Positions 23,821-46,703 are shown, counted from the stretch's first letter. The stretch is DNA of 64,000 nucleotides from a virus (IMGVR_UViG_3300036768_000367:1057-65056), one strand, 5' to 3'. Translations and numbers: made by a program. Notes: generated by a model from the letters alone, not told the origin.

Positions 23821-23821
23821 T

Positions 23822-24079: not shown

Positions 24080-24150
24080 ATCACTCATTCGGTATGCTAA
24101 TAAAAGTAAATATGTCGTAGCATTTTATGTTAGTATAGAATGGGTTTTTA

Positions 24151-24912
24151 ATGTCTAAAATAGGCGACACTTATAAGTGGGAAAATACTATTACAAAAAC
24201 TGTCCATATTGGACAGACAAATAATTTTTTAAGAAGACGTCATGAAGAAAAATATTTTTTGCAAAAAGGTGGGTTTTCAAGCAGCCACTTTCAAGCCTCA
24301 TGGAAAAAGCACGACGCCGATAAATTTGCTTATTCTATATTAGAAGAAGTAGAAGATCATATGTTTTTAACTTCTTTTGAGCAAGCATATTTAGATTACT
24401 ATAAGAGCTTAAATGCTGGTGTGTATAATCAAGGTGGGCCCGTAGATTCTCTAACCATAGGTGTGCCATCTTCCAAAAATGGTAAGCCTGGCAGAAAAAT
24501 TACAGAAAAAGAGCGTGAAGATATAGGTCTAAGGCTCATGGGACACCAGGTCTCGGACGAGGTGAAAAACAAAATAGCTTCAAAGGCCCGTGGCATAAGA
24601 CACTCTGATGGTACTAAAAATAAAATACGCTCGATTACTAGGCAGATGTGGCAAGATGAGGTTATCAAAAATAAATTATTAGCGCTAAGAGTATCGCCAG
24701 AGTGGCGCCCAAAAATCTCTAATACTAGAATTAAAACAAAATTCATAGAGGCAATAGATTTAAGCACAGGACTAGTTCTAGAGTTTACGTCGCTTTACAA
24801 CGCCGCTCAAGCAGGTTTTGATAAGTCGGCAATATTAAGAATTCTTAATGGTAAGAGCGCATCGCACAATGGATGTTTCTGGCAATGTTTGGCGAAAACT
24901 GGTGAAGTATGA
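24151..24912 (+). CDS. GIY-YIG homing endonuclease (degenerate motif) with NUMOD3/NUMOD1-like domains
   Basis: GDTYKWEN...VHIGQT..F.RR..E; HFQASWKKH; EQAYLDYY; YN; HSDGTKNKI; C-terminal ILNGKSASHNGCFW. Confidence 0.8.
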   Translation: MSKIGDTYKWENTITKTVHIGQTNNFLRRRHEEKYFLQKGGFSSSHFQASWKKHDADKFAYSILEEVEDHMFLTSFEQAYLDYYKSLNAGVYNQGGPVDSLTIGVPSSKNGKPGRKITEKEREDIGLRLMGHQVSDEVKNKIASKARGIRHSDGTKNKIRSITRQMWQDEVIKNKLLALRVSPEWRPKISNTRIKTKFIEAIDLSTGLVLEFTSLYNAAQAGFDKSAILRILNGKSASHNGCFWQCLAKTGEV

Positions 24913-27900
24913 CAAATTACCCTAATCAAATAGATGGATATAGTACTCTGCCAGTGCTCGTCGATTTGGTAAGCCCTGTACGTGCGGCGGATGTTAATAG
25001 GTTACGTAATTCGATTATTTCTATAGAGCGAGAGCTTGGCATTAATCCTAGTGGCACCTATGGCACTGTCCGTGCACGCCTTGATGCTTTAGAGTTAGGG
25101 TTCGGTGGCTCCATTATTACGGGTGGAGGCGGCGGCTCCGCTGGAACTGGAGAAGATTATCTATCAGGCATGATAGAAACACCTACAGATAAGGAATATT
25201 TTCTTACTACAGAAATTCCATATGATGGATATATTTATTCTATCAGTACAAAATCATCTGCTGGCTCCTGTACTTTAACTACCAAAATAAATGGCATAGC
25301 AGTTGGCGGCACTCCCAATGCTGTTAGTACCACCGAAGTCACTGAATATACCAGTGCTCCTAACAAGTTCTTTGCAGGTGATACGTTAACAGTTGAAGTT
25401 TCTGAAAACGCAAGCTGTGCAGATCTTTCTTTTACCGTACTAATGTATGTTACGCCAGGTGGTAAATTTGGTGAGGCCAATGTTGGTGCCAATGTAGGCG
25501 TAGCTGGTGTGGGTCTATATAAGCAGAAGACTGGGCTTACATTAGAATTTAGAAATATAAATGCTGGCTCAAACAAAATAAATGTTGGCCTAGATGCGCC
25601 AAATAACGAAATAGACATAGATGTTGTTGAAGCCAACTTGACTCTCAACAACATTGGTGGCTCACCATTAAGCATTAGCAATGGTGGCACTGGCCAATCA
25701 ATTGCTATAAATGGTTTTAATGCATTAGCGCCAACTACTACAAAGGGCGATCTGATTGTTAGAAATAATACCTCCAATGTCAGACTTGGTGTTGGAACGG
25801 ATGGCTACTTACTTATTGCTGATTCAACGCAACCAGAGGGCGTGCGTTGGGGCAGTCCAGCATTCGTGGGCGCCAATACTGCACTGTCAAATTTAAGTGC
25901 TACAGCAATAAACTTATCACTAATCCCTGGCGCAGATGATGTGCTAGATCTTGGTTCATCATCTCTTCGTTGGAGAGATTTGTACCTAGGACCCACTTCA
26001 TTAAGATTTGTCACCACAATTGCTGAAACTGGCACGGTACGAAATTGGCGTCTCAGCGTGCGTGAAACAGCTGGCTCTACTCGGGGCAGCCTTATTATTC
26101 AAGAGGGAGCTAGTGAATACCTTTATATTACTCCAGTTGGTAATGTTGGTATAGGAGTAACGGATCCATCTACAATTATTGATATCAATGGTGTTAGCAC
26201 TTATCGTGGAGTTGGCTCACCTCCACCAGTTTCATTAACTGGACAAGGCACTATTTATTTTGATGGCGCGACTAATAAGTTCAGATTCTCTGAAAATGGT
26301 GGAGCTTATCAGGACTTCGGCACTGGTGGAGGCGGTGGCGGTGGAGCCAATACCTCGCTATCAAATCTGGTAGCAACAAATATAAATACTTCATTACTCC
26401 CAGCTACTGATGATGGCTATGATCTTGGTGGCTCAGCCCAACGTTGGAGAGATCTTTACTTAGGTCCAACGTCACTACACTTAGTCTCAACCTCTGGAGA
26501 AACTGGCGTGGCGCGTGATTGGAAATTAGCAATAGCAGAGGCCGCTGGCTCGACCCGTGGACGTTTGCGAGTCATGGAGGGAGCAAGCGAATATATTAAC
26601 ATCACACCATCTGGATTAATTGGTATTGGAACTACAGAGCCAGCTTTTGACCTGCATGTGCTCAAAGCTTCTTCGGTCACAATTCAGTCAGAAAATAGTG
26701 CCACTACTGGATACGCTTCGGTAATATCTAGAAACAACTCGGGGTCATATGTCCAACTATTCTCAGCTGGCTCAGCTCAGGCTGGAACATGGTTTGCCAA
26801 TGATACATCTCCATTGTCAAGAACTAATACCGTAGGTTTTATAACTGGAGGTTCAGAAACCGCACTGGTGTTTGCAGCACAAGGCAATGTGCCTCTTCAG
26901 ATAGGACAAAACAATACTACCAGATTGTTATTTAACTCTACTCTTGGCGTAATTAATCCATCAAATAAAGATTATGATCTGCAAATACGTGGCCAGACGA
27001 CCTCGGATCTAATTTATGTTGACACATCTGCAAATAAGGTTGGTATTGGAACTAATTCCCCAGGATCAACTGTGCCTGGCAATGTAGTTCTTGATGTAGT
27101 TACTGCCACAGATACCAAGGTAGTTGCCAGAACAACTGGTGGCATTGGTACGGGATTTGCTTCATTTACACTGCAATCCACTGGTGCTTCAAACAATCCA
27201 TATTTTGAATGTCAGCTAATTCCAAGTAATACTGATAGACAATCTTATATAAGACATAATTATGTAGGATTAACTACTACAAATGAAATACTTGTTTTGC
27301 GTGGAGATGGCCATGTTGGTATTGGCACTACTAATCCTAATGAAGCACTGACATTACAAGGTGTTCTTAGCTTACAAGAGCAAGCCGTTGGTCCAGCTAT
27401 TAGTGCTGGTTATGGAAAGATTTTTGTAGGCTCCGATTCTAAGTTATATTTTATAGATGACTCTGGTGCACAATTCGATTTGACCGCAACAGGTGTTTTT
27501 GGTACGGGGGCCACTGACTCTGTAACTTATTGGTCTAGTCCAAGTGCACTGACCAACTCTGCAACATTTGTATGGAAAGAATCAACGCAGCGTGTAGGTA
27601 TAGGCACAACAGATCCTACGGCCAGCGCGCATGTTTTCTCAAGCACAGATGCCAAAGTTAAAATAGAAGCTGGTGATTCTAACAAGGCAGGAGTAGATTT
27701 TAATACTGGCGGAACCATTCGTGCAGATATAATTATAGACGGCTCAGTATCAGGCACACCGTTAAGTATTAATAAAAATTACGCAACTGATGTAACTATT
27801 GCGGCGGGCGGGGGCAACGTAGGCTTTGGCAATATTACGCCATCATCAAAAATAGATGTTGATGGGTCTATTACATGGAGAGGTTTAACCGCTCCGCCAG

Positions 27901-29102
27901 TAGCACCAGTGGGCCAGGGTAGAATTTATTTTGACACTTCTACCTCAAAATTTAAGATTTCAGAAAGTGGTGGTGCATATTTCGATATTAGTTCGGACAG
28001 CGCTGCCGACATCAATCTTTCTAACTTAGCAGCGACATCTATAAATACTGATTTATTACCACAGGTAGATGATGGTTATGATCTGGGCTCAGAGCTATTT
28101 AGGTGGAGAGATGGTTACTTCGGTCCTTCATCACTACATATAATTACAAAGGTTGGAGAAACCACTGATCCACATCACTGGGTATTAGGCGCAGCAGAGG
28201 CTCCAGGTCCAACGCAAGGTCGATTCACAATTCGTGATGGTAATAGTGAATTTTTCTCAGTAGATGGATATGGATTCGTAGGCATTGGTACTAGCGAGGC
28301 GTCATCTATATTAGAGGTTGGTGGCGCTATTACCTATGGAGGCATGACCCCACCGCCAGTAGCCCCATCTGGTAAGGGTAGAATATATTTTGATTCCGTA
28401 TCAAATCAATTCAAAATGTCGGAAAACGGTGCGCCATATGTCGTACTTGGAAGCGGCGGTGCCAACACATCACTATCCAACATTAGCAGTACCAATATTA
28501 GCGATTCGTTAATTCCAGCAATAAATGATGGATATGATCTAGGCTCAGACAGTAGTCGTTGGAGAGATGGTTATTTCGGAGCAGAAACGTTACATATTGG
28601 CAATAGCATAGCAGATGAAGCTAGGATCAGTTACGATGGAACTGCTGATAAGCTATACATTGGCATAGGCGATGGTCAGCATATAACGGTTAAGTCAGAT
28701 GGTTACGTAGGCGTTGGTACGACCAATCCATTGTTTAATCTTGAAGTAAATGGAACATTTGGAGCAACAACCAAGTCATTTATCATAGATCATCCTCTGA
28801 AGCCTGGAAAAAAATTAAGACATGGATCATTAGAAGGTCCAGAAAATGGCGTCTATGTTCGTGGTCAACTGGATAATGAATCTGTAATAGAGTTACCAGA
28901 CTACTGGACAGGATTAGTTGATGAGTCTACGATCACTGTTAATTTAACGCCAATTGGCGGGCACCAGAAGCTTTACGTAGATATGATAGATGATAATTGT
29001 GTGCACATAAAGACAGAGTCTTTGTCTGCACCAATAAAGTGTTATTATACTATTTTTGCTGAACGTAAAGATGTTGCTAAGCTGATAGTAGAGCCATTAT
29101 GA
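24909..29102 (+). CDS. Long tail fibre protein
   Basis: 1397 aa; shared YP..ID...LP..D N-terminal anchor; many GxVGIGT fibre motifs; four ANTSLSNL...DLG...RWRD repeats; conserved C-terminal TKSFIIDHP..LRHGSLEGPENGVYVRG domain. Confidence 0.85.
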   Translation: MTNYPNQIDGYSTLPVLVDLVSPVRAADVNRLRNSIISIERELGINPSGTYGTVRARLDALELGFGGSIITGGGGGSAGTGEDYLSGMIETPTDKEYFLTTEIPYDGYIYSISTKSSAGSCTLTTKINGIAVGGTPNAVSTTEVTEYTSAPNKFFAGDTLTVEVSENASCADLSFTVLMYVTPGGKFGEANVGANVGVAGVGLYKQKTGLTLEFRNINAGSNKINVGLDAPNNEIDIDVVEANLTLNNIGGSPLSISNGGTGQSIAINGFNALAPTTTKGDLIVRNNTSNVRLGVGTDGYLLIADSTQPEGVRWGSPAFVGANTALSNLSATAINLSLIPGADDVLDLGSSSLRWRDLYLGPTSLRFVTTIAETGTVRNWRLSVRETAGSTRGSLIIQEGASEYLYITPVGNVGIGVTDPSTIIDINGVSTYRGVGSPPPVSLTGQGTIYFDGATNKFRFSENGGAYQDFGTGGGGGGGANTSLSNLVATNINTSLLPATDDGYDLGGSAQRWRDLYLGPTSLHLVSTSGETGVARDWKLAIAEAAGSTRGRLRVMEGASEYINITPSGLIGIGTTEPAFDLHVLKASSVTIQSENSATTGYASVISRNNSGSYVQLFSAGSAQAGTWFANDTSPLSRTNTVGFITGGSETALVFAAQGNVPLQIGQNNTTRLLFNSTLGVINPSNKDYDLQIRGQTTSDLIYVDTSANKVGIGTNSPGSTVPGNVVLDVVTATDTKVVARTTGGIGTGFASFTLQSTGASNNPYFECQLIPSNTDRQSYIRHNYVGLTTTNEILVLRGDGHVGIGTTNPNEALTLQGVLSLQEQAVGPAISAGYGKIFVGSDSKLYFIDDSGAQFDLTATGVFGTGATDSVTYWSSPSALTNSATFVWKESTQRVGIGTTDPTASAHVFSSTDAKVKIEAGDSNKAGVDFNTGGTIRADIIIDGSVSGTPLSINKNYATDVTIAAGGGNVGFGNITPSSKIDVDGSITWRGLTAPPVAPVGQGRIYFDTSTSKFKISESGGAYFDISSDSAADINLSNLAATSINTDLLPQVDDGYDLGSELFRWRDGYFGPSSLHIITKVGETTDPHHWVLGAAEAPGPTQGRFTIRDGNSEFFSVDGYGFVGIGTSEASSILEVGGAITYGGMTPPPVAPSGKGRIYFDSVSNQFKMSENGAPYVVLGSGGANTSLSNISSTNISDSLIPAINDGYDLGSDSSRWRDGYFGAETLHIGNSIADEARISYDGTADKLYIGIGDGQHITVKSDGYVGVGTTNPLFNLEVNGTFGATTKSFIIDHPLKPGKKLRHGSLEGPENGVYVRGQLDNESVIELPDYWTGLVDESTITVNLTPIGGHQKLYVDMIDDNCVHIKTESLSAPIKCYYTIFAERKDVAKLIVEPL

Positions 29103-29300
29103 GCATGATCATCGGACGTTGACACTGTATCTTGTTCGCATCTTGGAACTACCAATACCAAAACTGGATCAAATGCTAGAGGAACCCTGTATCCAGTCTT
29201 ATATTCTTTTAATGGTCAATCATTGTACGAATGGATACTAATAAGAAAATATTCATCTGGAACAGTCAGTACCACAGTGGGTAGTGAGGTCGCAATATAA
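29099..29300 (+). pseudogene. Internally deleted structural gene remnant
   Basis: Coupled start MSMIIGR* joined out of frame to a C-terminal fragment ending LYEWILIRKYSSGTVSTTVGSEVAI*, whose stop overlaps the next ATG. Confidence 0.5.
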
Positions 29301-30190
29301 TGCCTTTATTTATATTTATTCCTAGTGAAGCAGCTATTGGCGGCGACCTTTTTGGCACGCCTCTAGCGCCTTTTGACTCGGAAGGTCACATTCCTATAAA
29401 TTCGAACATAGTTTTTGGTATCAGTGCTACTGGAACCGTTATATTTGATTATTCGTCACTTACAATTAAAATAAACAATGTGGACGTAGTCACCGCTGGA
29501 ATCCCGATAGCAGGATATTCGTTATCACTAGCTCGTGGGCAGTTTTACAACACAACTGGATTAATACTTACATTAACACACCCAGCCAACCTTTCGACAT
29601 TTACTACTTATACTATAGATGCTTTATTTAATACAATTAATTTAAAAGAATACAGTATGCACTATACGTTTACAACAAGCGATAGATTGACATTTAATTC
29701 CAACTTTCAATTTGGCAACACAAATCTTAACAGGTATTATTTTGACTATAGTTTTAGAGAAAATAGTCAAAGTATTGGTAGTTTTGCAACTCCGTCTTTA
29801 AATTATAATGGTTTTAATTTATTGGAGAGCCCAGCATCGAGCACCAAGATAATCTTGCAGGCAGATAGTGTGGCTGGTATACCTGACGTATTAAATGAGG
29901 AATTTGGAACATTCTCTCATATTGTGGCAACCCGTCTTGGTGATGACATCAATGCATCAAATGGTTTAACCGAAGGTAGTGTAGATGAGCAAAGAATTAT
30001 TTATAACAGTATAATAGCTACTATGAATACTAATAAAGGTGATACTTACAGTCAAAAAGATGCTCGCACAGCCGAATCTCAGGGACAGCCGACACCGTTT
30101 CCCACCATGTTAGGACCAAGATTTGGTGCCAAGGCGCTAGATAGACAGGTTGATTCTTTAAAGATTCAAAAACGAACCGAAGATGCGTGA
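29300..30190 (+). CDS. Putative structural protein with Ig-like N-terminal domain
   Basis: PINSNIVF.I...SSLTIKINN..LTLTHPANL...TTYTI...YTFTT resembles a bacterial Ig-like fold. Confidence 0.55.
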   Translation: MPLFIFIPSEAAIGGDLFGTPLAPFDSEGHIPINSNIVFGISATGTVIFDYSSLTIKINNVDVVTAGIPIAGYSLSLARGQFYNTTGLILTLTHPANLSTFTTYTIDALFNTINLKEYSMHYTFTTSDRLTFNSNFQFGNTNLNRYYFDYSFRENSQSIGSFATPSLNYNGFNLLESPASSTKIILQADSVAGIPDVLNEEFGTFSHIVATRLGDDINASNGLTEGSVDEQRIIYNSIIATMNTNKGDTYSQKDARTAESQGQPTPFPTMLGPRFGAKALDRQVDSLKIQKRTEDA

Positions 30191-30238
30191 CTATCAATAT
30201 AAATGTAGAGATGAAACCTTTACAAGATAGGATAAAAG

Positions 30239-32308
30239 ATGACAGCTAAATATCAAGCAGGTACATTTACTCATGAGGTGGATCTTTGGAAGAAGATCAC
30301 GGATCTAATGCTTAGTGCAGGCTGGACCGTCCAAGCTACTATAGCAGACGGTTATGATAAAGTATTTACCTCAACTGGTGAAGATGGTTACGCTATTAAT
30401 TATCTGCGCGTAGCTGCAAGAAAACAAGATGAGTATCGTGAAAACTTCGGATACAGTCAGCGCTTAGATAGCGATGGCTATAGTGGGTTTGTCAATTTTT
30501 TTGCATACCAATTCTTTCCAACTACTGGCACCTCATCTGCTGATGGCTACAGTGAAATAGGTAGGATGGGACCAATTCTTTATGTTATTGACCAAGACAG
30601 TGTAGGTGACATTCGTCGTATTAATTTAATCACATCAACTGCAGCCAGCCCACGAGTGACCGATCATAGTGCAAACATAGGCTTTTGGCCAGATAGAGAT
30701 GCAATGGATCAAGCATTTAATAGTGGCGGAGCAAGATTTGATGGTAGTAAATTTATTTACTTTCAACATGATCTTGGTCAACTAAGAAGATATAATGTTT
30801 CTACTGGTACCACCACTTTTATACAGCAACCAATAAATAGATTTATAGCCAATGGATTTACTCAATTAAAATCTACTGATAGATATTATCTATTAGGACT
30901 GACCAACAATGGCACTGCTGGCTTTCAGTCCATACTTTTTGAGTTTAATTTTAATGACGTATTAACATCATCTAAATTTATAGCTGACCCACCGTGGGCC
31001 AGTAGCTCACATGCCCCAAGAATAGTTGGCTATGATAGGTATTTTTATGCGGTGCGCGGAGCTAGCAGCACAAATTTTGCAAGATACGATATTTTAACTA
31101 ACACATGGACGTCATTGACCAGCACCAACTTGCCCAACGTCTATAGTGGTGCTTCAATGGTATTTGTTACCAGACAACAAACTGGCTTATCAAAACATCG
31201 TATTTATTTATTAACTGGAAACTCTACCAATAGCCTTAGATATATTAATGTAGAAGATGACGGCTCTATATTAGATGCATCATGGACTATTGCAACTGGC
31301 GCTCCATTTTCTAGCCTTAGTGGTTCTCAGCCTGGATTTGAGTGGGACGGATACGATGGAATATTTTACAATCCAGGTGAAGGCGGATCTACTTTAAATG
31401 AATTTTATAGATACAATATTAGTACAGGGACCTGGACATTAGTAGATTCTAATTTTATGCCACAAGATATTAATGACGTATGTACGTTACAATTACACAA
31501 TGGACTGCAATCGCGTGTCCGCGCAGAAAACAATAAGCCTGGACAAAAATACTGGCTATTCGTAGATAAAGATAGGATAATCACTATTACCAAAGATGCC
31601 TCAGGATTCTATACCTATTGCTATGCTGGTGCTATAGAGAGTTATTATGATATCACTACAAAGGCGATTACAACCTCATCGGTATCAGCAGGTGCAGGTG
31701 TAGTAATTCCAGTAAATAATACGAGTCGATTTACCATAGGTGAAAAAGTGCAAATACAGGGCGTTGCCCCAACCGACTTTTTTACGCACGTAGGTTTAGA
31801 TAATCGTACTAGAAAATTTATTAGAACTGAGCACTTTACTATTAGCGCAATTAATGCTGGTGTCAGTATTACCGCTACATCACTAAATGGTAATTATAGT
31901 GCTGGATCTAGAATTGCAAGTGATATTCAAAATACCATATTAACAGTAGAAGGAACTCGTTGGGCTCAGGCTCTTAACAAGCCAAATACTACCAATAGTT
32001 TTGCATCTGGTGATCAAGCGGAGCAAATGTATTTAGTTCAACCAGCAGTCTCAACAACACAAACAGCACTAACAGATTTGAATGATAGAACTGGTCAGTT
32101 TATATTATGGCCATTCGTCGTCTCTAGCGAGAATCTTACTAATTATTCAGGCAAAGAGGTGAGAGGTCAACTAAAAGGCGTTTTTGTGGCTGGTTCTGGT
32201 ACAGGAGCATCAGAAGATGTGATAGAAATTAATGGACAACAATATATAATGTTTTCTATCGCAAGACAGGAAGATACTAGATTCTTCGTCTTCGGGCCTG
32301 TAGTTTAA
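30239..32308 (+). CDS. Virion protein with Kelch-like beta-propeller (paralog of 32324)
   Basis: YFYAVRG..STNFARYDILTNTWTSL, FYRYNISTGTWT; N- and C-terminal regions (DLWxKI, G.EVRGQLKGV, F.FGP) shared with 32324. Confidence 0.7.
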   Translation: MTAKYQAGTFTHEVDLWKKITDLMLSAGWTVQATIADGYDKVFTSTGEDGYAINYLRVAARKQDEYRENFGYSQRLDSDGYSGFVNFFAYQFFPTTGTSSADGYSEIGRMGPILYVIDQDSVGDIRRINLITSTAASPRVTDHSANIGFWPDRDAMDQAFNSGGARFDGSKFIYFQHDLGQLRRYNVSTGTTTFIQQPINRFIANGFTQLKSTDRYYLLGLTNNGTAGFQSILFEFNFNDVLTSSKFIADPPWASSSHAPRIVGYDRYFYAVRGASSTNFARYDILTNTWTSLTSTNLPNVYSGASMVFVTRQQTGLSKHRIYLLTGNSTNSLRYINVEDDGSILDASWTIATGAPFSSLSGSQPGFEWDGYDGIFYNPGEGGSTLNEFYRYNISTGTWTLVDSNFMPQDINDVCTLQLHNGLQSRVRAENNKPGQKYWLFVDKDRIITITKDASGFYTYCYAGAIESYYDITTKAITTSSVSAGAGVVIPVNNTSRFTIGEKVQIQGVAPTDFFTHVGLDNRTRKFIRTEHFTISAINAGVSITATSLNGNYSAGSRIASDIQNTILTVEGTRWAQALNKPNTTNSFASGDQAEQMYLVQPAVSTTQTALTDLNDRTGQFILWPFVVSSENLTNYSGKEVRGQLKGVFVAGSGTGASEDVIEINGQQYIMFSIARQEDTRFFVFGPVV

Positions 32309-32323
32309 TAATGGTGATATAAT

Positions 32324-34417: not shown

Positions 34418-34433
34418 TAAGTAAGGAGAAAGT

Positions 34434-35078: not shown

Positions 35079-35123
35079 AAAAACTAGCAATGGATATTTC
35101 TGGAAATATATGGAGAATAGAAC

Positions 35124-35411: not shown

Positions 35412-35412
35412 T

Positions 35413-35640: not shown

Positions 35641-36089
35641 AATCTACCAGGCCAGAAATATGGTATTACAATCCAACTCAGCGAGACATACCGCTTGCGG
35701 AGTTGGATATGACTATTAAGTCACATAAGTGCATAAATCTTTTAAAATACAATCCAAATTTAACATTGGATAGAGTTTTAAAATCAGAGGCAAACGGCGT
35801 ACTTAAAAGATATGTTGATGCTGGCAAGCTAATAAAAGTAGACAAGCCTATTATAAATAAAGATGCAGCGCCTAGATTTGCCGAATCTAAGGAACCTATA
35901 TACTCTAAAACTCACAGTATAATAAATATAGATCCAAAAGAAAAAGATTTTATAGATCAGCTAGAAAGCGATTTTATAGAAGATTCTCCAATGGATAATA
36001 CCAAGCAAGTGGCCATTAATGAAAAGTTCTTAAAAAAAGTAGATCTCGAAGGTTTTGCTGATCCACTAGAAGAGCTTGTTGGCGAATAA
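35637..36089 (+). CDS. Hypothetical protein
   Basis: Translationally coupled (ATGA) to the cold-shock gene; 150 aa. Confidence 0.65.
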   Translation: MKSTRPEIWYYNPTQRDIPLAELDMTIKSHKCINLLKYNPNLTLDRVLKSEANGVLKRYVDAGKLIKVDKPIINKDAAPRFAESKEPIYSKTHSIINIDPKEKDFIDQLESDFIEDSPMDNTKQVAINEKFLKKVDLEGFADPLEELVGE

Positions 36090-36148
36090 CCTCTATTAAT
36101 AAATAGCTTATTAGATGCTAACTATAGCTTATTTCTGGATTTGCATCA

Positions 36149-37036: not shown

Positions 37037-37072
37037 TAATAATATTATACCAACTCAGTAAAGGGGTGTGCT

Positions 37073-37318
37073 ATGGCCGATATTCGTCCTACGAAGGGAA
37101 CTTTTCAACATTTTAGTGGCACAGGCGCTAATGTAGTTAGGTTTGAAAGAACCGTTACTAATTTAATTATCACCGTAACTGGAACGGTACAGTTTGGAGT
37201 TGATGGTATTAAGTACGTAACATTAGCTGCTGGAACACACCAATTATTAAATGTCCCTATTAAAGATTTATATTTGATTGGCGGCGGAACCTACGAAGGT
37301 TTCGGCGTTGCACTCTGA
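37073..37318 (+). CDS. Small beta-rich hypothetical (structural?) protein
   Basis: GGGGTG RBS; 81 aa. Confidence 0.6.
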   Translation: MADIRPTKGTFQHFSGTGANVVRFERTVTNLIITVTGTVQFGVDGIKYVTLAAGTHQLLNVPIKDLYLIGGGTYEGFGVAL

Positions 37319-37325
37319 GGTTTAA

Positions 37326-37670
37326 GTGTTTGAATTAATTGCTTCTTTAGGTAGTGCTGCTCTACAATATGGCGCCCTCGGTTTCGGCTGGGTGCTTGCT
37401 GTTATATTGCTTGCATACTTTATTAGAAGCCTCAAAGCTAGAGATAAAGAGCTCATGCAAGTTAAAACGCAACACATAAATGACGTAAAGTTGTGGGGAT
37501 CTAAGCTAGAACAGTTGCACGAAAAACAAAGTAAAATAGTCTCTGATTTAACCGATAAGCGCGTCGAGGATCTCAAGGAATTGGTAGATGATTATAATGA
37601 GATTGCTACTAGTATGGTGACTTCTCTTGATAAGCTAGCCAGCAGCATTAAATCTAAAAAACAAGATTAA
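37326..37670 (+). CDS. Membrane protein, holin-like
   Basis: N-terminal hydrophobic helix (LQYGALGFGWVLAVILLAYFI) followed by a charged coiled coil; GAGG RBS. Confidence 0.5.
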   Translation: MFELIASLGSAALQYGALGFGWVLAVILLAYFIRSLKARDKELMQVKTQHINDVKLWGSKLEQLHEKQSKIVSDLTDKRVEDLKELVDDYNEIATSMVTSLDKLASSIKSKKQD

Positions 37671-37701
37671 CTAATAGAAGATCTTGTTTCGGAGTTTATA
37701 C

Positions 37702-37887
37702 ATGGAAAATATCGATAACTTAAAGTCTAAAAGCAAGCAAAGTAAAAAGATTGCAAAGGAAAAAATGCTCAAGTTATTAGAGTATATTGATGATACAGAA
37801 TGTGTAGAAATAGACGGCGATGGCGAGGCTGTTGCTTGTATAATCGATACCGCAAAGACTAAGGTCAAGTCTAAAATGCGAAAGTAA
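37702..37887 (+). CDS. Hypothetical protein
   Basis: GGAG RBS before ATG 37702; stop overlaps the next start. Confidence 0.5.
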   Translation: MENIDNLKSKSKQSKKIAKEKMLKLLEYIDDTECVEIDGDGEAVACIIDTAKTKVKSKMRK

Positions 37888-38384
37888 TGTATGGACCAAA
37901 TATGTCTAAAAAACAAATTGAGGATAAAGAGCAGGAACTACTTGATAAGGTACGAGATCTTTTAAAGCACAGCGCTATCGTAGCGCAAATGTTTGAAAAG
38001 TTTGATACATCAATTAAAAAAATTGAAGATGTACCAATTCAATTTTCAGATATAGACGTATCGGCAAAGACAAAAGATAAGAAAATATATCTTAATAATG
38101 CACTAATTGATGACGGTGATTTTACAAATCATATACATTATGTAGTACACGAATTGTGTCATTTTTTGCAACAATCTAATGGAGAAGTATCTAAGTATAA
38201 AAACTTAGATGAAATGGACTATTTAGACCAGCCAACTGAAATAGAGGCTTTTAACTATCAAATAAAATTTATTAAAGAGCTAGATGGTCAAAATGCGGCC
38301 GATAAGTACTTAAAAGACTTACTGGACTTTCATGAATACAAGGGCACAGCTCGTGATAGGAAATCGCATGAGTTATTGGAATAG
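37887..38384 (+). CDS. HExxH zinc metallopeptidase-like protein
   Basis: KIYLN...VVHELCHFLQ...YL..PTEIEAF zincin pattern. Confidence 0.7.
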   Translation: MYGPNMSKKQIEDKEQELLDKVRDLLKHSAIVAQMFEKFDTSIKKIEDVPIQFSDIDVSAKTKDKKIYLNNALIDDGDFTNHIHYVVHELCHFLQQSNGEVSKYKNLDEMDYLDQPTEIEAFNYQIKFIKELDGQNAADKYLKDLLDFHEYKGTARDRKSHELLE

Positions 38385-38393
38385 GTGTAATAA

Positions 38394-40430
38394 ATGGTTT
38401 GCATGCTTTCTGCACCACAATGGAATGATGCCCAGCAAGTTGGACTTAAGTCTGCTATAGAAAATGTAGCAGATAATACGGTTGTATTGACTTGGAATTC
38501 GGCATCCGCTACTCTGCCAGCCGATCAATTTTATTATTTAATCTATCATTCTACAGATGCCAATACGATATATGATGCTCCAAAATACATTAGTCTAGAA
38601 ACACGAGTAGCCATTCCGCTAACACTAGTTTCTCCAGACGATTATTTCGCAGTTCGCCCTGCACAGCTCGGCACCACGTCAATTTTTAATGGCACCAATT
38701 TGACAGAGGTGTTTCCAGACGGATATGCATTTGCTTCACCAGTTGAACTAAGTGCACCATTTGCCCCACTTGATGGATATATTTTTGTAAACTCTATAAG
38801 TGGATATCCACTTATAGATGGATATTTGTCAATAGGCACGGAAATAATTCAGTATGCTAATTCCATTAGCTCATTTATGGGCTCACCAGCATTTTATATT
38901 GCCAACAGAAATCCGTACGGATGCAATGATGCGTATGGTGGCACGTATCCGACTGGTACCACAGTTAGTTTACACAAAGGTTTTGAAAATAAAGCTGGAT
39001 CAAGAGTTAAGGGGCTTCATTCTTGTGGCTTAAACAGACCAACTTGGGCTGACTTATTATTCCCAGGAGTGCAGAAGGTTAAGGATTTAGGCATAGGAAC
39101 TTCGGTAGAGGTTTCTTGGAATTATGCAAAACCTCCACCTGGTTTCTCTAACTTGTACTATAATGTGTATGCTGATACCAATCTTTATACGCTTGGTACA
39201 GGGCAGCCATTTGGTATTACTAGTGGTTTAAGCGCAGTGGTACCTGGATTACATCCAGGTGACGGATATTATTTTGCAGTAAGGGCAACGTACTTATTTG
39301 ATGCATTAGATACAGCGTCAATGGAATTGATAAGCAACGAATTTTATGCTTATCCAACACCTGCCACGATTAACGAGTTAGATGGATACTATTCTACATA
39401 TGAAACGGGCCCATTGAGAGTAAATAGTACAGACGGATTTCCAAGCTCAGGCTTGTTACGTATTGGTTCCGAAATACTTGAATACTCTGGTATTACACCA
39501 ATTACTTTTATCATATCACGCCGCGATGTATTTGATTTCCAAAATACATATGATTATCCAAACGGAACAGTAGTAGAACTATTTAAAGGAATAGAAGACG
39601 GTAACACTGTTGTGTATATGTCTACGCCCACATGGACTGCTAGGTCCGCTTGGCTGCCACCAACGCCAGGCGATGGGTATGATGGATATCTTTACATGCA
39701 AGACGCAGATGGTTATAGATCTACTCAAGTTAATAATATTACTGAAAATCATGAAGAATTTGAAGAAAATAATATTGATTATAATTCAGAAGATTATTGT
39801 GGATTCAGAAGTCAAAACTTCGTAGACCTTTATACTAGACAGCAATGCGGAACCTATTTGGGTGGTCGCATCGGTGGATTTAGCGGAGGCATAGATGTGT
39901 TTGAAGCAAATACTCAAAGACAAGAAATGCTTTTGGGCTTAACTGGTGAGCCATTTATCTTACTTCAAAGAAAATGGGAGGGCCGTACTTGCCCAAAATT
40001 ATCTCTAAGAAATGAGCATCCTCATCAACGCTGTTCTAATTGTTATGGCACGACATTTGCTGGAGGATATGATCGCTATTTAAATCCAAGAGAAATTCAG
40101 CCAGCGGTAGCGAATCCAAATGGATTTATTATGGTACGTGTAGCACCATACACTGACGATCTCGGAATTTTTGATAATCGCGGCCTTTCTAACGAAGTGG
40201 TGGAAATAGATGCTTGGACTACGGCAATACCACTCATTAAAGATAGAGATATACTTATTAGATATGTATATGACGTAGAGTATGGTGTTGTGAGAGAAGA
40301 GTTTAGATACGAGGTACTTTCTGTTACTAGAAACAAACTATTGTTTGGTAAGGACGGAGCACAAAAATTCCGTATTAAAAGACTTAATAAAACAGAAGAA
40401 GTGTATAAATTTAAGGTGCCATTGGTGTAA
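38394..40430 (+). CDS. Putative neck / head-closure protein with fibronectin-III-like domains and a zinc finger
   Basis: Two FN3-like units (V.LTWN..YYLIY..YFAVR); C-terminal LL..TGEP..LLQRK..G..C....CSNCYGT.F.GGY and DRDILIR..RYEV..VTR. Confidence 0.55.
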   Translation: MVCMLSAPQWNDAQQVGLKSAIENVADNTVVLTWNSASATLPADQFYYLIYHSTDANTIYDAPKYISLETRVAIPLTLVSPDDYFAVRPAQLGTTSIFNGTNLTEVFPDGYAFASPVELSAPFAPLDGYIFVNSISGYPLIDGYLSIGTEIIQYANSISSFMGSPAFYIANRNPYGCNDAYGGTYPTGTTVSLHKGFENKAGSRVKGLHSCGLNRPTWADLLFPGVQKVKDLGIGTSVEVSWNYAKPPPGFSNLYYNVYADTNLYTLGTGQPFGITSGLSAVVPGLHPGDGYYFAVRATYLFDALDTASMELISNEFYAYPTPATINELDGYYSTYETGPLRVNSTDGFPSSGLLRIGSEILEYSGITPITFIISRRDVFDFQNTYDYPNGTVVELFKGIEDGNTVVYMSTPTWTARSAWLPPTPGDGYDGYLYMQDADGYRSTQVNNITENHEEFEENNIDYNSEDYCGFRSQNFVDLYTRQQCGTYLGGRIGGFSGGIDVFEANTQRQEMLLGLTGEPFILLQRKWEGRTCPKLSLRNEHPHQRCSNCYGTTFAGGYDRYLNPREIQPAVANPNGFIMVRVAPYTDDLGIFDNRGLSNEVVEIDAWTTAIPLIKDRDILIRYVYDVEYGVVREEFRYEVLSVTRNKLLFGKDGAQKFRIKRLNKTEEVYKFKVPLV

Positions 40431-40433
40431 TAT

Positions 40434-42407
40434 ATGACTGGAACAACATACCCAAACTCCATAGATGGATATATTAGTTTGCCACTATTGGTGGACAATG
40501 TCTCACCAGTCGTTGCTGATGATCACAATAGATTACGAAATACAATAGTTACAATTGAAAATGAGCTTGGAACAAATCCTAGCAGCACTTATGGAACCGT
40601 AAAAGATAGACTTGATGCTATAGAGGCCTCAATCTCTGGTATTTCTAATAATCAAAATAGAATAGGCGCTGCCGAAGACGGTTCATATACAGATGGTCTG
40701 TTCACAGATTTTGTATCAAGTACGCCTATAGGCACCGCAGTCGATAGATTCAATGAAGTGCTAAAAGAACTGGCTCCATCTCCAGCGCCTAACTTATCTA
40801 ACATAAGTTATACTACTGGCCTGGGCACTGCGGGCAAGGTTTCATTTGGAATATCAAATACAATTAGTACTTATTTCAATGTTACCACTGCCGATGGAGA
40901 TTCTGCCCTTGATATAAATGGTACTGTTACCAGCGCAGCTTCTTTAGCTGTACGTAAAGGTATTTATGCAAGTGGCGTAGTTAAGCAAGGAGAGTTAGCT
41001 AGCAATGTACCAGCAGGCGCAGGAAGCCCGACTCCCGCTTATCCTGCAAAATCTATAGGAAATGGCGATCAAGGTTTGCTTCAATTGTTTGTCAATGGAG
41101 CCCTCTCGCATCAAGTAGATCTGAGCACGTTTGGTTCTGGCTCTAGTCTGAATGCAAACGGCTCAGGTTTTATCAACCTATCATCGGCAACCAGCGTATC
41201 TTTTCCTAGTGGTGCACCATTTAGCTTATTTAAGTATAGAACTGGCGAGTGGATAGTTACCCCACAAGATCAGCGTAACGGCCATAATTATGTGCAAGTA
41301 AAGCATGTAATTGGCAGCAACACGTATACTACAAATATGTTTGGATGGGTTAATGACGCCGATGTCACAGCGACCACATTTAGTGGTGAGAATTTATATG
41401 CCCTTGCAATGACTGGATCCAAATTTATATCTGGCGTTCAATATCACACAGCTGGTACTGCTAGTTATGATATTACAGTATCAAATTTACATAGAAATAC
41501 TTATAGCTCTTCAGCATCAGCGATAAGTCATGGTGCCTCTATTAATGTCAGTATTCCATCTACGGCATTAGGCTCAATAGCTACACAGTCTGATACCGAA
41601 ATCATTACTGCTAAAGTAGCAACTGTTACTGGCACAAGACTATTGAATGCAACCATTACTGGCAAAACTTCGGTGGATAGAACTGTGCAGTCTGATTTAA
41701 CTAGCACAGGAGCATCGATAACTGGTATATTAATGGACACTGTTTCTGATGATGCAACCGCAACAAACGAGACATTAAATGGAGAAAAATTCAGAGTTCC
41801 ATCGAATAGATCATTGACTGATACTAGTGGATTCACTCTGAGCGGCGCTAGTCTGTGGATATCTACTAACAATCTGATCACTGGACCAGCTGGATATAAT
41901 GATGGTCTGCTGGTTTATAATGGAGGATTGTTTTACCCAAACAATGCGTCTGTAGCAAATAATGGTAATTTCTCAGCAGTAGCAAATGGACCTGGCGGCA
42001 ATCCCAACTATAGCACGGCTAGCGGAACCAGGACTTATTGGAGATATTTTTATTTCAGTAGTGCCACGCAGAATTTCGTATTAAACGTAACTTCCAGCGG
42101 TTGTTCATTTATTTCGACAGCTTCTGCACTTGGGCTCAATAATGGAAATGTTCACATGGAATTGTTAGCCCCAAACACAACCTCTAATGGAGTCAGTATT
42201 GAGTTCAAAGATTGTGTAACCGCATATACTACTGATAATGCAATAGGATGTTTTGCAGCTACGTATGGACCAACAATACCCACCAATTGGGGCGTAACTC
42301 TTGGAACAAAGAGTACCGCAACATCTGGCAATGCAATAATATTAAGAGTAACAGTAGGCAATGGTTGGACTGGCACAATTAGTAATATAAGTCTAATAGG
42401 TGTATGA
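40434..42407 (+). CDS. Virion structural protein with shared N-terminal anchor
   Basis: YPNSIDGY..LP..D..N.LR..IE.ELG.NP; EDGSYTDGLFTDF..GTAVDRFNEVLK; beta-rich. Confidence 0.7.
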   Translation: MTGTTYPNSIDGYISLPLLVDNVSPVVADDHNRLRNTIVTIENELGTNPSSTYGTVKDRLDAIEASISGISNNQNRIGAAEDGSYTDGLFTDFVSSTPIGTAVDRFNEVLKELAPSPAPNLSNISYTTGLGTAGKVSFGISNTISTYFNVTTADGDSALDINGTVTSAASLAVRKGIYASGVVKQGELASNVPAGAGSPTPAYPAKSIGNGDQGLLQLFVNGALSHQVDLSTFGSGSSLNANGSGFINLSSATSVSFPSGAPFSLFKYRTGEWIVTPQDQRNGHNYVQVKHVIGSNTYTTNMFGWVNDADVTATTFSGENLYALAMTGSKFISGVQYHTAGTASYDITVSNLHRNTYSSSASAISHGASINVSIPSTALGSIATQSDTEIITAKVATVTGTRLLNATITGKTSVDRTVQSDLTSTGASITGILMDTVSDDATATNETLNGEKFRVPSNRSLTDTSGFTLSGASLWISTNNLITGPAGYNDGLLVYNGGLFYPNNASVANNGNFSAVANGPGGNPNYSTASGTRTYWRYFYFSSATQNFVLNVTSSGCSFISTASALGLNNGNVHMELLAPNTTSNGVSIEFKDCVTAYTTDNAIGCFAATYGPTIPTNWGVTLGTKSTATSGNAIILRVTVGNGWTGTISNISLIGV

Positions 42408-42416
42408 GGAATTTAA

Positions 42417-45400
42417 ATGGCATTTTTAACAGATACATTAGCACGTGCTGCATTTAAAAGAACTCTTGGCAAAGGACATACTTCAGGCTCTAAGGATTTG
42501 TCCAATGAGGCCGAGACATCTTTTATTACTATTGCCGCGCGCGATATATTTGCAGATAGAATACCAACCACTCCTGCTAGTGCTATAGCCGCTGGCGTAT
42601 CTACGTCATTAGTGTCCTTAACTTTAACACTAGATCCATCATCAAATGGAAAGGCTTACCTTGCATCGATTGCTACTGTAAGCGGGAGCCCGCTAGAAGG
42701 AAAAATAAATCCACGTACTGGCGCACCATTTGCTGATACAGATCGAGTAGGATTTTTAATTCCTCCACAATATGGGACTGATTTCCGTGCAATACTAAAG
42801 AATAATGGTACAGAAATAGCTCCATCATCTGCACAAGATTGGTTTATTGATTATGTTGCTGGCATAGTAACATCAGAAGACAATCTTAGTTTGGTTAATG
42901 GAACATTAGAAGCATATGTTTATAATGGAAGATATCTTGACTCAGTAGTTATTACACATGATCTTTTTACCACACAGGCTGACGGCTATGGCGTATTTGC
43001 TAAAGGGCCAGGCGGCACTGATGGATATAGTATTGTAACTAACAATGTTGGTATCGGCACTACAACACCATCTGAGAAATTAACCATTAGTACTTCAGCT
43101 AACGGAGGTATTGCTATTAACAACAGCTCTACTAACGACCCTACTTTAAAGTTTAAACTTTTAAATGTAGATACATTCATTGCTGGTATAGATAATTCTG
43201 ATGGTGATAAGTTCAAGATTGAAAGAGGGTCATTACTAGGAACCAATAACGATATTGTTGTAAACTCTACAGATGGGTATGTTGGGCTCAATGTTTCATT
43301 GCCTACTCAGAGATTACATCTTAACGGCAGCCTAAGAGTAGGCATTAACAATAGTGAAACTATTATAAGCGATAGCGACCTTGCACTAGGCTCAGAGGGA
43401 TCGCTTCTATTAGTATCGGATTCAAGTTCTATAACAGGTACTCCATCTGGAGACATTATATTTGGCGCAGGCTCCGCAAATGCTGCAAGTAATGCCACAT
43501 TTGCAAGTATGTTCCCAGCAAGCGTTCCGCGCCGTGAGTACATGCGTATTAGAGCTTCAGACGGATACGTCGGAATTGGAACCACAATTCCATCAACAAA
43601 TGGTAGATTGACGATTGCCAACGGCAACTTAAGCTTGCTTAGCGGTGGTGTCTCCGTAACTGGTGGTAATTATATTATCAATAATGACAATGCTTATGTC
43701 GGCATGGACTCTCAGAACAATTTGTTTTGGAGCAATACTACTGGCGATGGCGTATTGAATTTTAAGTCATCAGGATTTATCAACATAGATTCTAACAATA
43801 ACGATGCAGATACAAAAGCTCTTTTCATAGGAAAGAATCAGTCGGGATCAGCTACTAGCAGCAATCTTGTTACAATACAAGAAGCTGGACGAGTAGGTAT
43901 TGGCACCACAAACCCAGATTTTAAACTAACTCTGCATGGCTCCTCAGGTGGTGCCACAACATTTAAAGCAAACGGCATATTGTTACGCGCCACTAATACC
44001 AGTAGTGCTGGCGAAGCCGTGGTTGCTTGGCAAAGTGATGGCCCAGGAAATATTGCTGCGAACTACTGGATGGCTGGTATAGATGATACTGTTTCTGGAC
44101 TTAATTTCGGATACGGAACCACATTTACGAATACTAGCATGATCATGCACATCGGAACAGATGGTTACGTGGGCATAGGCACTACAACGCCTAAGGCAAA
44201 AATGAATGTTTATGATGGATATGATAGCCCTACTCAGACTGACTTTACACAAAATTTACACTCTCCAGGCTTCTTGGTAACATCTGACTATGTAAGCGGA
44301 AATTTCACACCTGGATTGTTCTGGTCTACGCAAGATGATAATAATACCAAGCCTAAGGCTGGCATATATACCAAGCTAACTGCTAGTGGAAGTTATTTGT
44401 ATTTTGGTACATCAAATTCTTATGCCACAGGCATTACCAATGATGCTATGGTTATTAGATATGATGGTAACGTTGGTATTGGCACGACCAATCCTGCTTA
44501 TAATTTACATATAGGCGCTGGTACTGTGACAAATAGCGCTCAGAGCAAGGTGGCACTTACTAATGTAACAAATAATCAGCGCGCAGCATTTGTAGCCAAA
44601 GCATTAGACTCTGGAGGTGTTGCTGTAGAAAGTATTTATGAGGCAAGCGGCACTGAGCAACGTGTGATACTAGGCGCTGCCACTAATCACGAGGTACAAT
44701 TAAGAACCAATAATACTGTTAGGCAAACATGGTTGACAACAGGTGAAGTGGGTATAGGTGTTACAAATCCTACAGAGCGTTTAGAAGTTAGCAACGGATC
44801 TTCTGCTGTAGATATATTTGTTGCCAAAGAAAACACTACAAATGTTTTCGTTTTGGCAGACGGCATGTCGGCACCATCAGCAAATAATTCTATTTTAACT
44901 GGTGCAACTACGGCAATCGCAAGTTGGAAGACGCCACAAGATTTGGACCTTGCAGTTAGACTATCAACCTACATTCACTTTGAAGACTTCCTTTTGGCAG
45001 AGGGTCATACAGGTGCTTCACTAACTAATAATGAAATTTTATCCAATGGATATCTTGTCAAGAATAGCGGCGCAACAGTAGATGCCAGAAGCTCTGGTTC
45101 AGTAACATTAAATCATCCTGGCGTGGTAGATATGAGCGTATTAACATTGAATAACTATGCTTCACTCATGTGGGGCGGCGGTAGCTCATTTACAGTAGAT
45201 ACAGGACAAGTATTTAAGTTGGTAGGATACTTCGATATTAGAACCTTGAATGGCGCAGATGATCAGAAGTTCGTATTTGGTGTGACATCATCTATTACAG
45301 GAGATCCAGGTGTTATTGGTACCAGTGATGTTGTGCTTATATATGATAATACCTCTAGTAATTGGAGATCATCTGTCAATGGTGTATTACACACCAGTAG

Positions 45401-45635
45401 TTTTACAGTAGCAACTGGCTGGAACAAGTTGGAGATTCAATTTACAGGAGGCGGCAGCACAGTGTCGTTTACAATAAACGGTTCGATTTATAGCAGAGGA
45501 AGCGTTACATTACCATCCGCTACAACAGATCTGTATATCTGGTGCGGCATTAAAAAAGTAAACGGTAGTACTACTACATTTACCATCGGCGTTGATTGCA
45601 TCGGATTTAGTATTTCAAATATAACAAGAGGATAA
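42417..45635 (+). CDS. Tail fibre protein
   Basis: 1072 aa; seven xxVG(I/L)(G/N) fibre repeats; DWFIDYVAGIV N-terminal module; lectin-like C-terminus. Confidence 0.8.
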   Translation: MAFLTDTLARAAFKRTLGKGHTSGSKDLSNEAETSFITIAARDIFADRIPTTPASAIAAGVSTSLVSLTLTLDPSSNGKAYLASIATVSGSPLEGKINPRTGAPFADTDRVGFLIPPQYGTDFRAILKNNGTEIAPSSAQDWFIDYVAGIVTSEDNLSLVNGTLEAYVYNGRYLDSVVITHDLFTTQADGYGVFAKGPGGTDGYSIVTNNVGIGTTTPSEKLTISTSANGGIAINNSSTNDPTLKFKLLNVDTFIAGIDNSDGDKFKIERGSLLGTNNDIVVNSTDGYVGLNVSLPTQRLHLNGSLRVGINNSETIISDSDLALGSEGSLLLVSDSSSITGTPSGDIIFGAGSANAASNATFASMFPASVPRREYMRIRASDGYVGIGTTIPSTNGRLTIANGNLSLLSGGVSVTGGNYIINNDNAYVGMDSQNNLFWSNTTGDGVLNFKSSGFINIDSNNNDADTKALFIGKNQSGSATSSNLVTIQEAGRVGIGTTNPDFKLTLHGSSGGATTFKANGILLRATNTSSAGEAVVAWQSDGPGNIAANYWMAGIDDTVSGLNFGYGTTFTNTSMIMHIGTDGYVGIGTTTPKAKMNVYDGYDSPTQTDFTQNLHSPGFLVTSDYVSGNFTPGLFWSTQDDNNTKPKAGIYTKLTASGSYLYFGTSNSYATGITNDAMVIRYDGNVGIGTTNPAYNLHIGAGTVTNSAQSKVALTNVTNNQRAAFVAKALDSGGVAVESIYEASGTEQRVILGAATNHEVQLRTNNTVRQTWLTTGEVGIGVTNPTERLEVSNGSSAVDIFVAKENTTNVFVLADGMSAPSANNSILTGATTAIASWKTPQDLDLAVRLSTYIHFEDFLLAEGHTGASLTNNEILSNGYLVKNSGATVDARSSGSVTLNHPGVVDMSVLTLNNYASLMWGGGSSFTVDTGQVFKLVGYFDIRTLNGADDQKFVFGVTSSITGDPGVIGTSDVVLIYDNTSSNWRSSVNGVLHTSSFTVATGWNKLEIQFTGGGSTVSFTINGSIYSRGSVTLPSATTDLYIWCGIKKVNGSTTTFTIGVDCIGFSISNITRG

Positions 45636-45636
45636 T

Positions 45637-46170: not shown

Positions 46171-46178
46171 GGAGATTT

Positions 46179-46694: not shown

Positions 46695-46703
46695 GGAAGC
46701 AAT

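Follow-up and report, generated by a model that had tools for sequence, protein, structure and literature searches.

The tripeptide Asp-Gly-Tyr is enriched in outer virion proteins of a clade of huge uncultured phages and is a candidate surface tag

Why should a tripeptide occupy only some copies of otherwise conserved repeats in the tail proteins of a phage? The question is raised by Asp-Gly-Tyr (DGY) in one virus record, IMGVR_UViG_3300036768_000367, of which 64,000 of 65,056 bases were analyzed (the window). The plus strand carries all long genes of the window, among them two genes for fiber proteins in which DGY is present in some modules and replaced by other residues in sister modules. 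A reading of the window from sequence alone (the sequence-only reading) had proposed that the motif is dispensable for folding and was gained repeatedly and independently at turn positions. The explanation that best covers our results, with a probability of roughly 0.55, is that DGY is a short surface motif that is selected at the amino-acid level and read in trans as a tag. The enrichment, its basis in protein sequence, its confinement to one lineage and gene module, the recurrent gains, the better-than-background retention, and the loop setting are shown below, and the reading in trans is inferred from them.

DGY excess in the window

DGY is the commonest tripeptide in the window. Counted over 38 plus-strand open reading frames (ORFs) of the 57 listed, with 19 overlapping or antisense ORFs left out, it occurs 69 times in 18,515 amino acids, against 3.6 expected from composition and 11.2 expected from dipeptides (z of 17); SGT, the second commonest, occurs 33 times. 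Within-protein shuffles (n = 2,000) averaged 3.5 DGY and never exceeded 13, and one tenth of all tyrosines in the window sit in the motif. Outer tail, fiber, and sheath proteins exceed chance about twentyfold, and the helicase, patatin-like protein, homing endonucleases, and major capsid protein of the window have no DGY. As expected of an acceptor motif, DGY is short and linear, over-represented in a defined set of proteins, and confined to virion proteins. The features on which the argument rests are as follows.

787..63589, plus strand: span of the virion gene module that carries DGY; present at least once in 21 of 38 ORFs
24909..29102, plus strand: tail-fiber protein, 1397 amino acids; 10 DGY vs 0.38 expected; C-terminal phrog_17490 domain
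42417..45635, plus strand: second fiber protein, 1072 amino acids; 6 DGY
38394..40430, plus strand: virion protein, 678 amino acids; 8 DGY, including the cluster PGDGYDGYLYMQDADGY
61043..63589, plus strand: tail sheath, 848 amino acids; DGY at residues 182, 423, and 478
3852-4871, plus strand: major capsid protein (phrog_2522, 1e-70); no DGY

All three residues of the motif are strictly required. Near-cognates are not in excess, with observed and expected counts of 3 and 3.8 for DGF, 0 and 0.9 for DGW, 3 and 4.4 for NGY, 1 and 2.3 for EGY, 1 and 3.1 for DAY, and 2 and 3.8 for DSY. Across all window ORFs, the reversed YGD and the permuted DYG each occur zero times against 3.6 expected.

The signal is at the level of protein because DGY is written with mixed codons (15 combinations, proportional to general codon usage), because the three minus-strand frames hold only 0, 0, and 1 DGY, and because GC-rich relatives use other codons (GAC/GGC/TAC). 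On these grounds of codon mixture, strand and frame specificity, and divergent codons in relatives, a DNA-level motif or mutation bias was rejected. It is likewise extremely improbable that the excess is an artefact of such a process or of repeat history, in which one duplicated module would have spread, as 21 of the 38 ORFs contain DGY and many of their products are unrelated. Descent does, however, account for part of the pattern, as the anchor repeats and N-terminal anchors described below demonstrate.

Lineage and history of the sites

Among homologous fibers, DGY is abundant in few. Searching with residues 1030–1290 of the 24909 protein returned 95 homologs, of which 13 hold 4–26 DGY each and, together with the two window proteins, make up a DGY-rich set. 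The remaining 82 homologs, the DGY-poor set, hold 0–2 each and 25 in total, against 30.7 expected. In the three residues before DLG, DGY is present in 17 of 26 cases in the rich set and in 0 of 27 in poor homologs, which have DTY in 5 and a tyrosine in last place in 15. After RW(R/K), RDLYL is commonest in poor homologs and DGY is found in 1 of 27, versus 9 of 26 in the rich set. Before VGIG, poor homologs have xGN in 586 of 957 cases and DGY in four, versus six of 68 in the rich set. Unrelated phages therefore do not carry DGY at the same positions at similar frequency, a pattern that would have refuted the sequence-only reading. Its view that the motif is dispensable for the fold also holds up, since other phages have DTY, DLY, DGN, DAY, DSY, DGS, or DGV at homologous positions. 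The DGY positions of this lineage lie one substitution from the ancestral residues. New copies arise in loops where two residues of the motif are in place and one substitution supplies the third, from D-T-Y, D-L-Y, D-A-Y, or D-S-Y or from D-G-N, D-G-S, or D-G-V, and an established copy is then retained longer than its neighboring sequence.

The record is a fragment of a huge uncultured phage, because its capsid protein has 395 relatives among IMG/VR contigs and some of these contigs span 130–442 kb. Of 80 capsid-linked loci, we analyzed the 48 that reach 8 kb or more, leaving out 32 that were shorter. With a split chosen after seeing the list, the 17 loci with a capsid match over approximately residues 1–338 have ∼145 DGY vs ∼14.5 expected, and the other 31 have ∼36 vs ∼26 expected. 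Counts over larger records are as follows.

G004, whole record: 89 DGY vs 5.2 expected
G002, whole record: 158 DGY vs 13.7 expected
G007, whole record, 56% GC: 108 DGY vs 13.9 expected
G006, complete, 441,904 bp: 71 DGY vs 17.1 expected
G005: 24 DGY vs 10.1 expected
G010: 21 DGY vs 14.0 expected

Whole-record pattern counts agree with proteome counts for DGY. In G006, 54 DGY fall in the structural region at 270–400 kb, where 6.6 are expected, and 17 fall elsewhere, where 10.6 are expected. The capsid protein has no DGY in seven of seven genomes. Judged from these sequences, the excess is specific to one clade of huge (∼300–440 kb) uncultured phages and, within it, to outer virion proteins, namely fibers, baseplate-region proteins, and the variable sheath domains.

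The trait nevertheless looks old and seems to have expanded in the clade of the window, because a DGY-poor clade keeps shared sites and a tandem array. In that clade, two giant genes adjoining a glycosyltransferase of family GT4 on the baseplate side retain DGY at three shared sites and in a tandem array. Giant proteins of 3182 and 3319 amino acids in this sister clade, from 6616-16164 of G005 (L121-L122) and 46676-56635 of G010 (L134), have a tandem array (DGYSDGYSDGYDDGYDGY; DGYADAYADGY..DGYADAY) at the same relative place; a similar one is found in a 3634-amino acid protein of G002. The 38394 protein has orthologs in six of six compared genomes, and one DGY of its cluster is retained even in the DGY-poor clade. 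A locus search with this protein gave four pattern matches, none of which was confirmed.

Within the fiber proteins, part of the patchiness reflects inheritance. The 24909 protein is built of four LSNL..DLG..RW anchor repeats and GxVGIGT modules, and the N-terminal anchor of its gene is one of four in the window.

25884..25985, plus strand: anchor repeat 1, residues 326-359; DDVLDLG..WRDLY, no DGY
26358..26459, plus strand: anchor repeat 2, residues 484-517; DDGYDLG..WRDLY
28017..28121, plus strand: anchor repeat 3, residues 1037-1071; DDGYDLG..WRDGYF
28473..28577, plus strand: anchor repeat 4, residues 1189-1223; NDGYDLG..WRDGYF
24918..24941, plus strand: N-terminal anchor YPNQIDGY, IDGY subtype; ORF 24909-29102
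40449..40472, plus strand: N-terminal anchor YPNSIDGY, IDGY subtype; ORF 40434-42407
47724..47747, plus strand: N-terminal anchor YPNELDND, D-T/S-D subtype; ORF 47715-52358
52383..52406, plus strand: N-terminal anchor YPTQIDSD, D-T/S-D subtype; ORF 52374-59618

Every motif, repeat, anchor, and paralog string quoted in the sequence-only reading is present in the gene to which it was assigned, but two of the contrasts drawn from these strings turned out not to be recent gains. In a tree of 45 repeat units from which the motif columns were removed, repeats 1, 2, and 3 each cluster with the same-numbered repeat of homologs (44–94% identity over the searched region) with support of 95–99 in the Shimodaira–Hasegawa-like approximate likelihood ratio test (SH-aLRT), and repeat 4 clusters with its counterpart at a weaker 84. 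The sequence downstream of repeat 4 (GAETLHIG..) differs in type from that of repeats 1–3, and this type is also found in DGY-poor homologs, there with DTY and DLY. Because each repeat groups with its same-numbered counterpart, the DGY states of the four repeats are old and inherited rather than recent. Parsimony on the tree requires five changes per site, of which well-supported branches force only one, and the tree was consequently rejected as proof of independent gains. Similarly, the IDGY-type anchor is present in DGY-poor G010, so the contrast between the anchors is not a recent gain, and the IDGY and D(T/S)D anchors are two old paralog types.

The GxVGIGT modules, of which there are ten in the 24909 protein and eight in the 42417 protein, behave differently from a duplicated unit. 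In the former, the VGIG-type motifs are VGNVGIG, SGLIGIG, ANKVGIG, DGHVGIG, TQRVGIG, GGNVGFG, VDGYGFVGIG, and SDGYVGVG. In the latter, three DGY precede VG(I/L), at residues 286, 382, and 582 (TDGYVGL, SDGYVGIGT, and TDGYVGIGT), and four sister modules have NNV, GRV, GNV, or GEV instead (NNVGIG, AGRVGIG, YDGNVGIG, and TGEVGIG). For modules with DGY, the nearest non-overlapping relative was another DGY module in none of five cases, which argues against a single duplicated DGY module. A pair of paralogs gives a further contrast.

11629..13086, plus strand: paralog without DGY; NDGFLSK and KAGHVL where its neighbor has DGY
13097..14476, plus strand: paralog with two DGY; QDGYLTK and VDGYVL

The two proteins align at 25% identity (E of 5e-37). 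NDGFLSK faces QDGYLTK, as the sequence-only reading had noted, and a second pair, KAGHVL and VDGYVL, also face each other. Two other adjacent paralogs, at 30239-32308 and 32324-34417 (∼690 amino acids each, with weak Kelch/beta-propeller matches), each have four similarly spaced DGY within their first 102 residues (37/49/79/102 and 20/48/81/101). The 177-amino acid product of 45637-46170 has three DGY.

The sheath provides the strongest record of turnover. In 120 sheath orthologs, the best of 407 matches (42–100% identity), there are 287 DGY, versus 18 expected, in 21 alignment columns; DGF, NGY, and EGY reach only eight, five, and one columns, respectively. Alternative states at the DGY columns are DAY, DSY, DGS, DGT, DGV, and DGE. 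Fitch parsimony, run on a midpoint-rooted FastTree topology, yielded ∼53 gains and ∼15 losses, and this homoplasy at the same columns is a further point against repeat history as the source of an artefact. In the window sheath, the three sites, which are present in 47, 71, and 70 of the 120 sequences, need 15, 9, and 3 changes, fewer than the median of 20 found for 181 control columns matched for frequency.

Comparisons of genome pairs show both turnover and retention. Orthologs of G006 and G007 share DGY at 36 of 62 columns, when the background tripeptide identity is 0.33, and those of G002 and G004 share it at 23 of 34, when the background is 0.22; between rich and poor genomes, sharing is not above background. 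Even between the sister genomes G006 and G007, 26 of 62 columns differ, and 14 of the 26 face a one-substitution neighbor. Sheath parsimony and ortholog sharing together therefore show that DGY was gained repeatedly and afterwards kept better than the surrounding sequence. Apart from the two contrasts corrected above, the evolutionary view of the sequence-only reading was thus largely right, notably on recurrent gain and loss, for which the sheath counts, the differing columns of the sister genomes, and the VGIG modules are the evidence. One-step gain at positions holding two of the three residues, followed by retention, explains why DGY is in only some copies of conserved repeats.

Structural setting and candidate readers

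The confidently modeled sites lie mostly in loops. A monomer model of the fiber C-terminus has a mean predicted local distance difference test score (pLDDT) of 58.5, and of the six DGY sites in it, just two fall in parts modeled well enough for a judgment.

28263..28271, plus strand: DGY of VDGYGFVGIG, residue 1119; modeled loop between two strands, pLDDT 82-86
28698..28706, plus strand: DGY of SDGYVGVGT, residue 1264; modeled loop between two strands, pLDDT 91-92

Both are in a short inter-strand loop just before the VGIG strand. In the sheath model (pLDDT 85.3), DGY 182 and DGY 478 each lie in a loop that follows a strand. Across the two models, four of five sites in confidently modeled parts are in loops next to strands, consistent with the turn positions that the sequence-only reading had predicted; the fifth, at sheath residue 423, is inside a long modeled strand and does not conform. 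The core fold of the sheath was confirmed by VIA-align (Z of 30–34 over ∼320 residues, root-mean-square deviation of 2.3–2.8) to the phi812, pyocin R2, and AFP sheaths. Sequence searches of solved structures found only a weak hit for the fiber (8ojn, E of 0.017) and no hit for the sheath. All 21 sheath DGY columns map to window residues 69–498 and none to the last 350 residues, and by analogy with solved sheaths, the region of these columns may correspond to outward-facing inserted domains.

Loop placement raises the possibility that DGY is simply a structural turn, in which Asp-Gly forms a tight beta-turn and Tyr packs against the strand that follows, without any reader. The modeled inter-strand loops are what this predicts, and the generic fiber module has a G-N turn at the same place (the xGN before VGIG). 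Yet other turn formers and aromatics are not enriched, either in the window (NGY, DGF, and DGW) or in the sheath columns (NGY and DGF), and homologous proteins in other phages fold without DGY. The motif is also limited to outer virion proteins, with none in the capsid protein or in non-structural beta-rich proteins, and forms tandem arrays such as DGYDGY..DGY in apparent linkers. We consider the structural turn unlikely. A tag read in trans fits better than a turn preference because of the strict use of D, G, and Y, the restriction to outer virion proteins, the loops, the retention, and the tandem arrays.

Two further explanations assume an interaction and no modification. Asp and Tyr are typical sugar-contacting residues, and exposed copies could make many weak contacts to host glycans or another ligand and act through avidity. 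Such direct binding would suit a motif that is restricted to outward-facing adsorption proteins and loops and that reaches 26 copies in one homolog. However, a weak binding patch should tolerate Trp, Phe, Asn, or Glu, and the near-cognates with those residues are not enriched; moreover, DGY is on the sheath, for which we know of no role in receptor binding. Taken together, direct binding appears quite improbable. Alternatively, DGY could be a docking peptide by which another phage protein recognizes assembled tails; a decoration or cement protein, a chaperone of assembly, or a protease of maturation would be examples. The strictness of the motif, its restriction to one gene module, and its retention fit docking as well as they fit the tag, and conservation in the DGY-poor clade of one DGY of the 38394 cluster and of three sites in the two GT4-adjacent genes is in its favor. 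On the other hand, no protein emerged as a candidate partner, a protease cutting at so many sites would destroy the fiber and sheath proteins, and, to our knowledge, there is no precedent for docking on three residues that recur hundreds of times in a virion. Docking therefore strikes us as very improbable.

If DGY is a tag, its most plausible reading is an acceptor site, and we tentatively suggest that the tyrosine hydroxyl would be glycosylated in the cytoplasm by a phage glycosyltransferase. In a fuller form, DGY would serve as acceptor sequon for a cytoplasmic system of tyrosine O-glycosylation not described before, which would coat sheath, baseplate, and fibers with self-made glycans, in some members with nonulosonic acids among them. 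Site number would evolve as in a viral glycan shield, with near-cognate tripeptides in loops turned into sites by one substitution and kept from then on. This fuller form is somewhat doubtful, and the putative sequon is best described as the leading but unproven mechanism.

Genes for glycan synthesis are prominent in relatives. In G006, a sugar-gene block at 293.7–313.2 kb abuts the first DGY-rich genes and encodes a nucleotidyl-transferase, 4,6-dehydratases, DegT, FdtA, and two methyltransferases, as well as a GT2, a GT47-like protein, a 1129-amino acid glycosyltransferase (307500-310889), and a double GT4 (GT4 at 310902-313166). In G002, a 57-kb block (∼38.7–95 kb; L145-L148) is located between a phage tubulin gene and the baseplate module and contains two NeuB, three cytidylyltransferases, GNATs, a pyruvyl transferase, a macro domain, and more than ten GT2/GT4. 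Glycosyltransferases adjoin structural genes in the relatives G006, G007, G002, G004, G005, and G010.

Several observations weigh against the tag and against its glycosylation. On the genetic side, no glycosyltransferase was found in the 64-kb window or in the 65,056-bp record, which stops before that region. DGY-poor G010 has an 18-kb glycan block, and a GT4 is beside the first baseplate-module gene in DGY-poor G005 and G010; the genes concerned are at 22–42 kb of G010 and nt 425–1510 of G005. Because the DGY-poor sister clade has them too, glycan clusters fail to separate rich from poor genomes, and the presence of a glycosyltransferase was rejected as a discriminator. The clusters could instead serve modification of DNA or of the host surface. 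All DGY-rich genomes belong to one clade, such that other clade-specific factors are confounded with the motif. On the structural and phylogenetic side, besides the sheath site in a strand, one sheath-family column is in a helix and four of the six fiber sites are in parts with pLDDT below 50. The sheath gain and loss counts depend on the tree topology and root used, and 10 of the 21 columns are singletons, which are countable as gains only. Finally, no modification was observed, and no enzyme is tied to DGY. Glycosylation is hence a lead and not a finding, because the poor clade shares the clusters and GT4 and the window has no transferase.

A subtraction of gene content (genes in G006 and G007 and not in G005 or G010) was tried as a way to single out a reader and was rejected, since it left ∼150 genes, too many to indicate one; the DGY-poor genomes are just 63–66% complete. 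G006 (L095, L100, and L102) also encodes a PrkA/DUF444/SpoVR trio, tubulin, trigger factor, DnaJ, and a ferritin-like protein, in addition to a tyrosine-phosphatase-family protein and a UDP-glucose dehydrogenase split by an intein with a LAGLIDADG domain.

The window also encodes an SNF2-type helicase, a patatin-like protein, and several very long fiber or baseplate-region proteins. The patatin-like phospholipase gene (22617-23420; PF01734, 3.8e-32) is amid tail and fiber genes. Two GIY-YIG homing-endonuclease genes are within the fiber gene block. The one at 24151-24912 encodes 253 amino acids (phrog_314, 1e-17), and its end overlaps the start of the 24909 fiber gene by 4 nt; the one at 34434-34739 encodes just 101 amino acids and appears truncated. 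Downstream (3′) of the capsid gene, 4872-6736 is a stretch of ∼1.9 kb without a plus-strand ORF of at least 100 amino acids, with only short ORFs and two antisense ORFs listed. No tRNA genes were found in the window, and 8 kb of it had no megablast match in deposited phage records.

Comparison with known systems

Should an enzyme or partner read DGY, the motif would be a new and very simple protein tag, portable to other proteins, and would open a way to study the coating of tails in huge phages. The phenomenon is quantitative, as the sister clade has a few conserved sites, which in the clade of the window have expanded to hundreds in each genome. Recurrent one-step gains and retention supply natural on/off pairs, for example the four anchor repeats, the DxYGxP repeats of the sheath, and the 11629/13097 paralogs. 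Our analysis contributes the origin of sites by one substitution, counts of gain, loss, and retention, and the finding that an adjacent transferase does not separate rich from poor clades. A literature search for a DGY or Asp-Gly-Tyr motif in phages, or for tyrosine glycosylation of virions or tail fibers, found nothing relevant among the papers listed, as judged by title or abstract.

Known sequons are similarly short. N-X-S/T is read by oligosaccharyltransferases and by cytoplasmic NGT/HMW1C-type enzymes, and the O-glycosylation motif of Bacteroidota is D-(S/T)-(A/I/L/V/M/T). As in sequon glycosylation, DGY has three residues, includes a nucleophilic side chain, occurs in many unrelated targets, and is made or lost by single substitutions. 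Sequons are placed in exposed loops; for DGY, four of five confident sites are in loops, which may be exposed. Unlike in known sequons, the sequence is D-G-Y and the candidate acceptor is tyrosine, and both transferase and glycan are hypothetical. The proteins that carry it are synthesized in the cytoplasm and belong to phage virions.

Virion glycosylation has been described in other phages. Virions of mycobacteriophages are glycosylated by phage-encoded glycosyltransferases (Freeman et al. 2023, as paraphrased in PMC12619734), and the glycans are reported to be at the C-termini of capsid and tail-tube subunits (PMC12619734). Sugar genes beside structural genes are a shared feature, seen here in relatives of the window. 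In contrast to the mycobacteriophage sites as they are summarized there, DGY is internal and on fibers, baseplate-region proteins, and sheath, and the capsid protein has none. The same source describes a lineage of large aquatic phages, the 'moraphages', with four core groups of glycosyltransferases (PMC12619734).

Tyrosine itself is an acceptor in bacterial S-layer proteins, in which beta-Glc/Gal is linked to Tyr (PMC2943079). According to that source, S-layer proteins have two to four sites, transfer probably accompanies secretion and depends on a membrane O-oligosaccharyltransferase, and no consensus motif is named (PMC2943079). The likeness to DGY is in a tyrosine acceptor on a self-assembling surface protein and in enzymes for deoxythymidine diphosphate-linked sugars of the FdtA/QdtB kind, also present in G006. 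The difference, relative to the site numbers given there, is in density, with up to 10 DGY per window protein and 26 in one homolog.

The closest relatives of the proteins themselves are tail fibers of the GxVGIGT type (phrog_9942 and phrog_18345). The 24909 and 42417 proteins share their module and the LSNL..DLGS..RW..LY anchor repeat, the matches are significant (phrog_9942, 1.4e-19; phrog_18345, 4e-12), and several homologs are named 'tail fiber domain-containing'. They differ in the residues at corresponding positions, at which the 82 homologs from other phages and bacteria have xGN, DTY, or DLY and the proteins of this lineage often have DGY.

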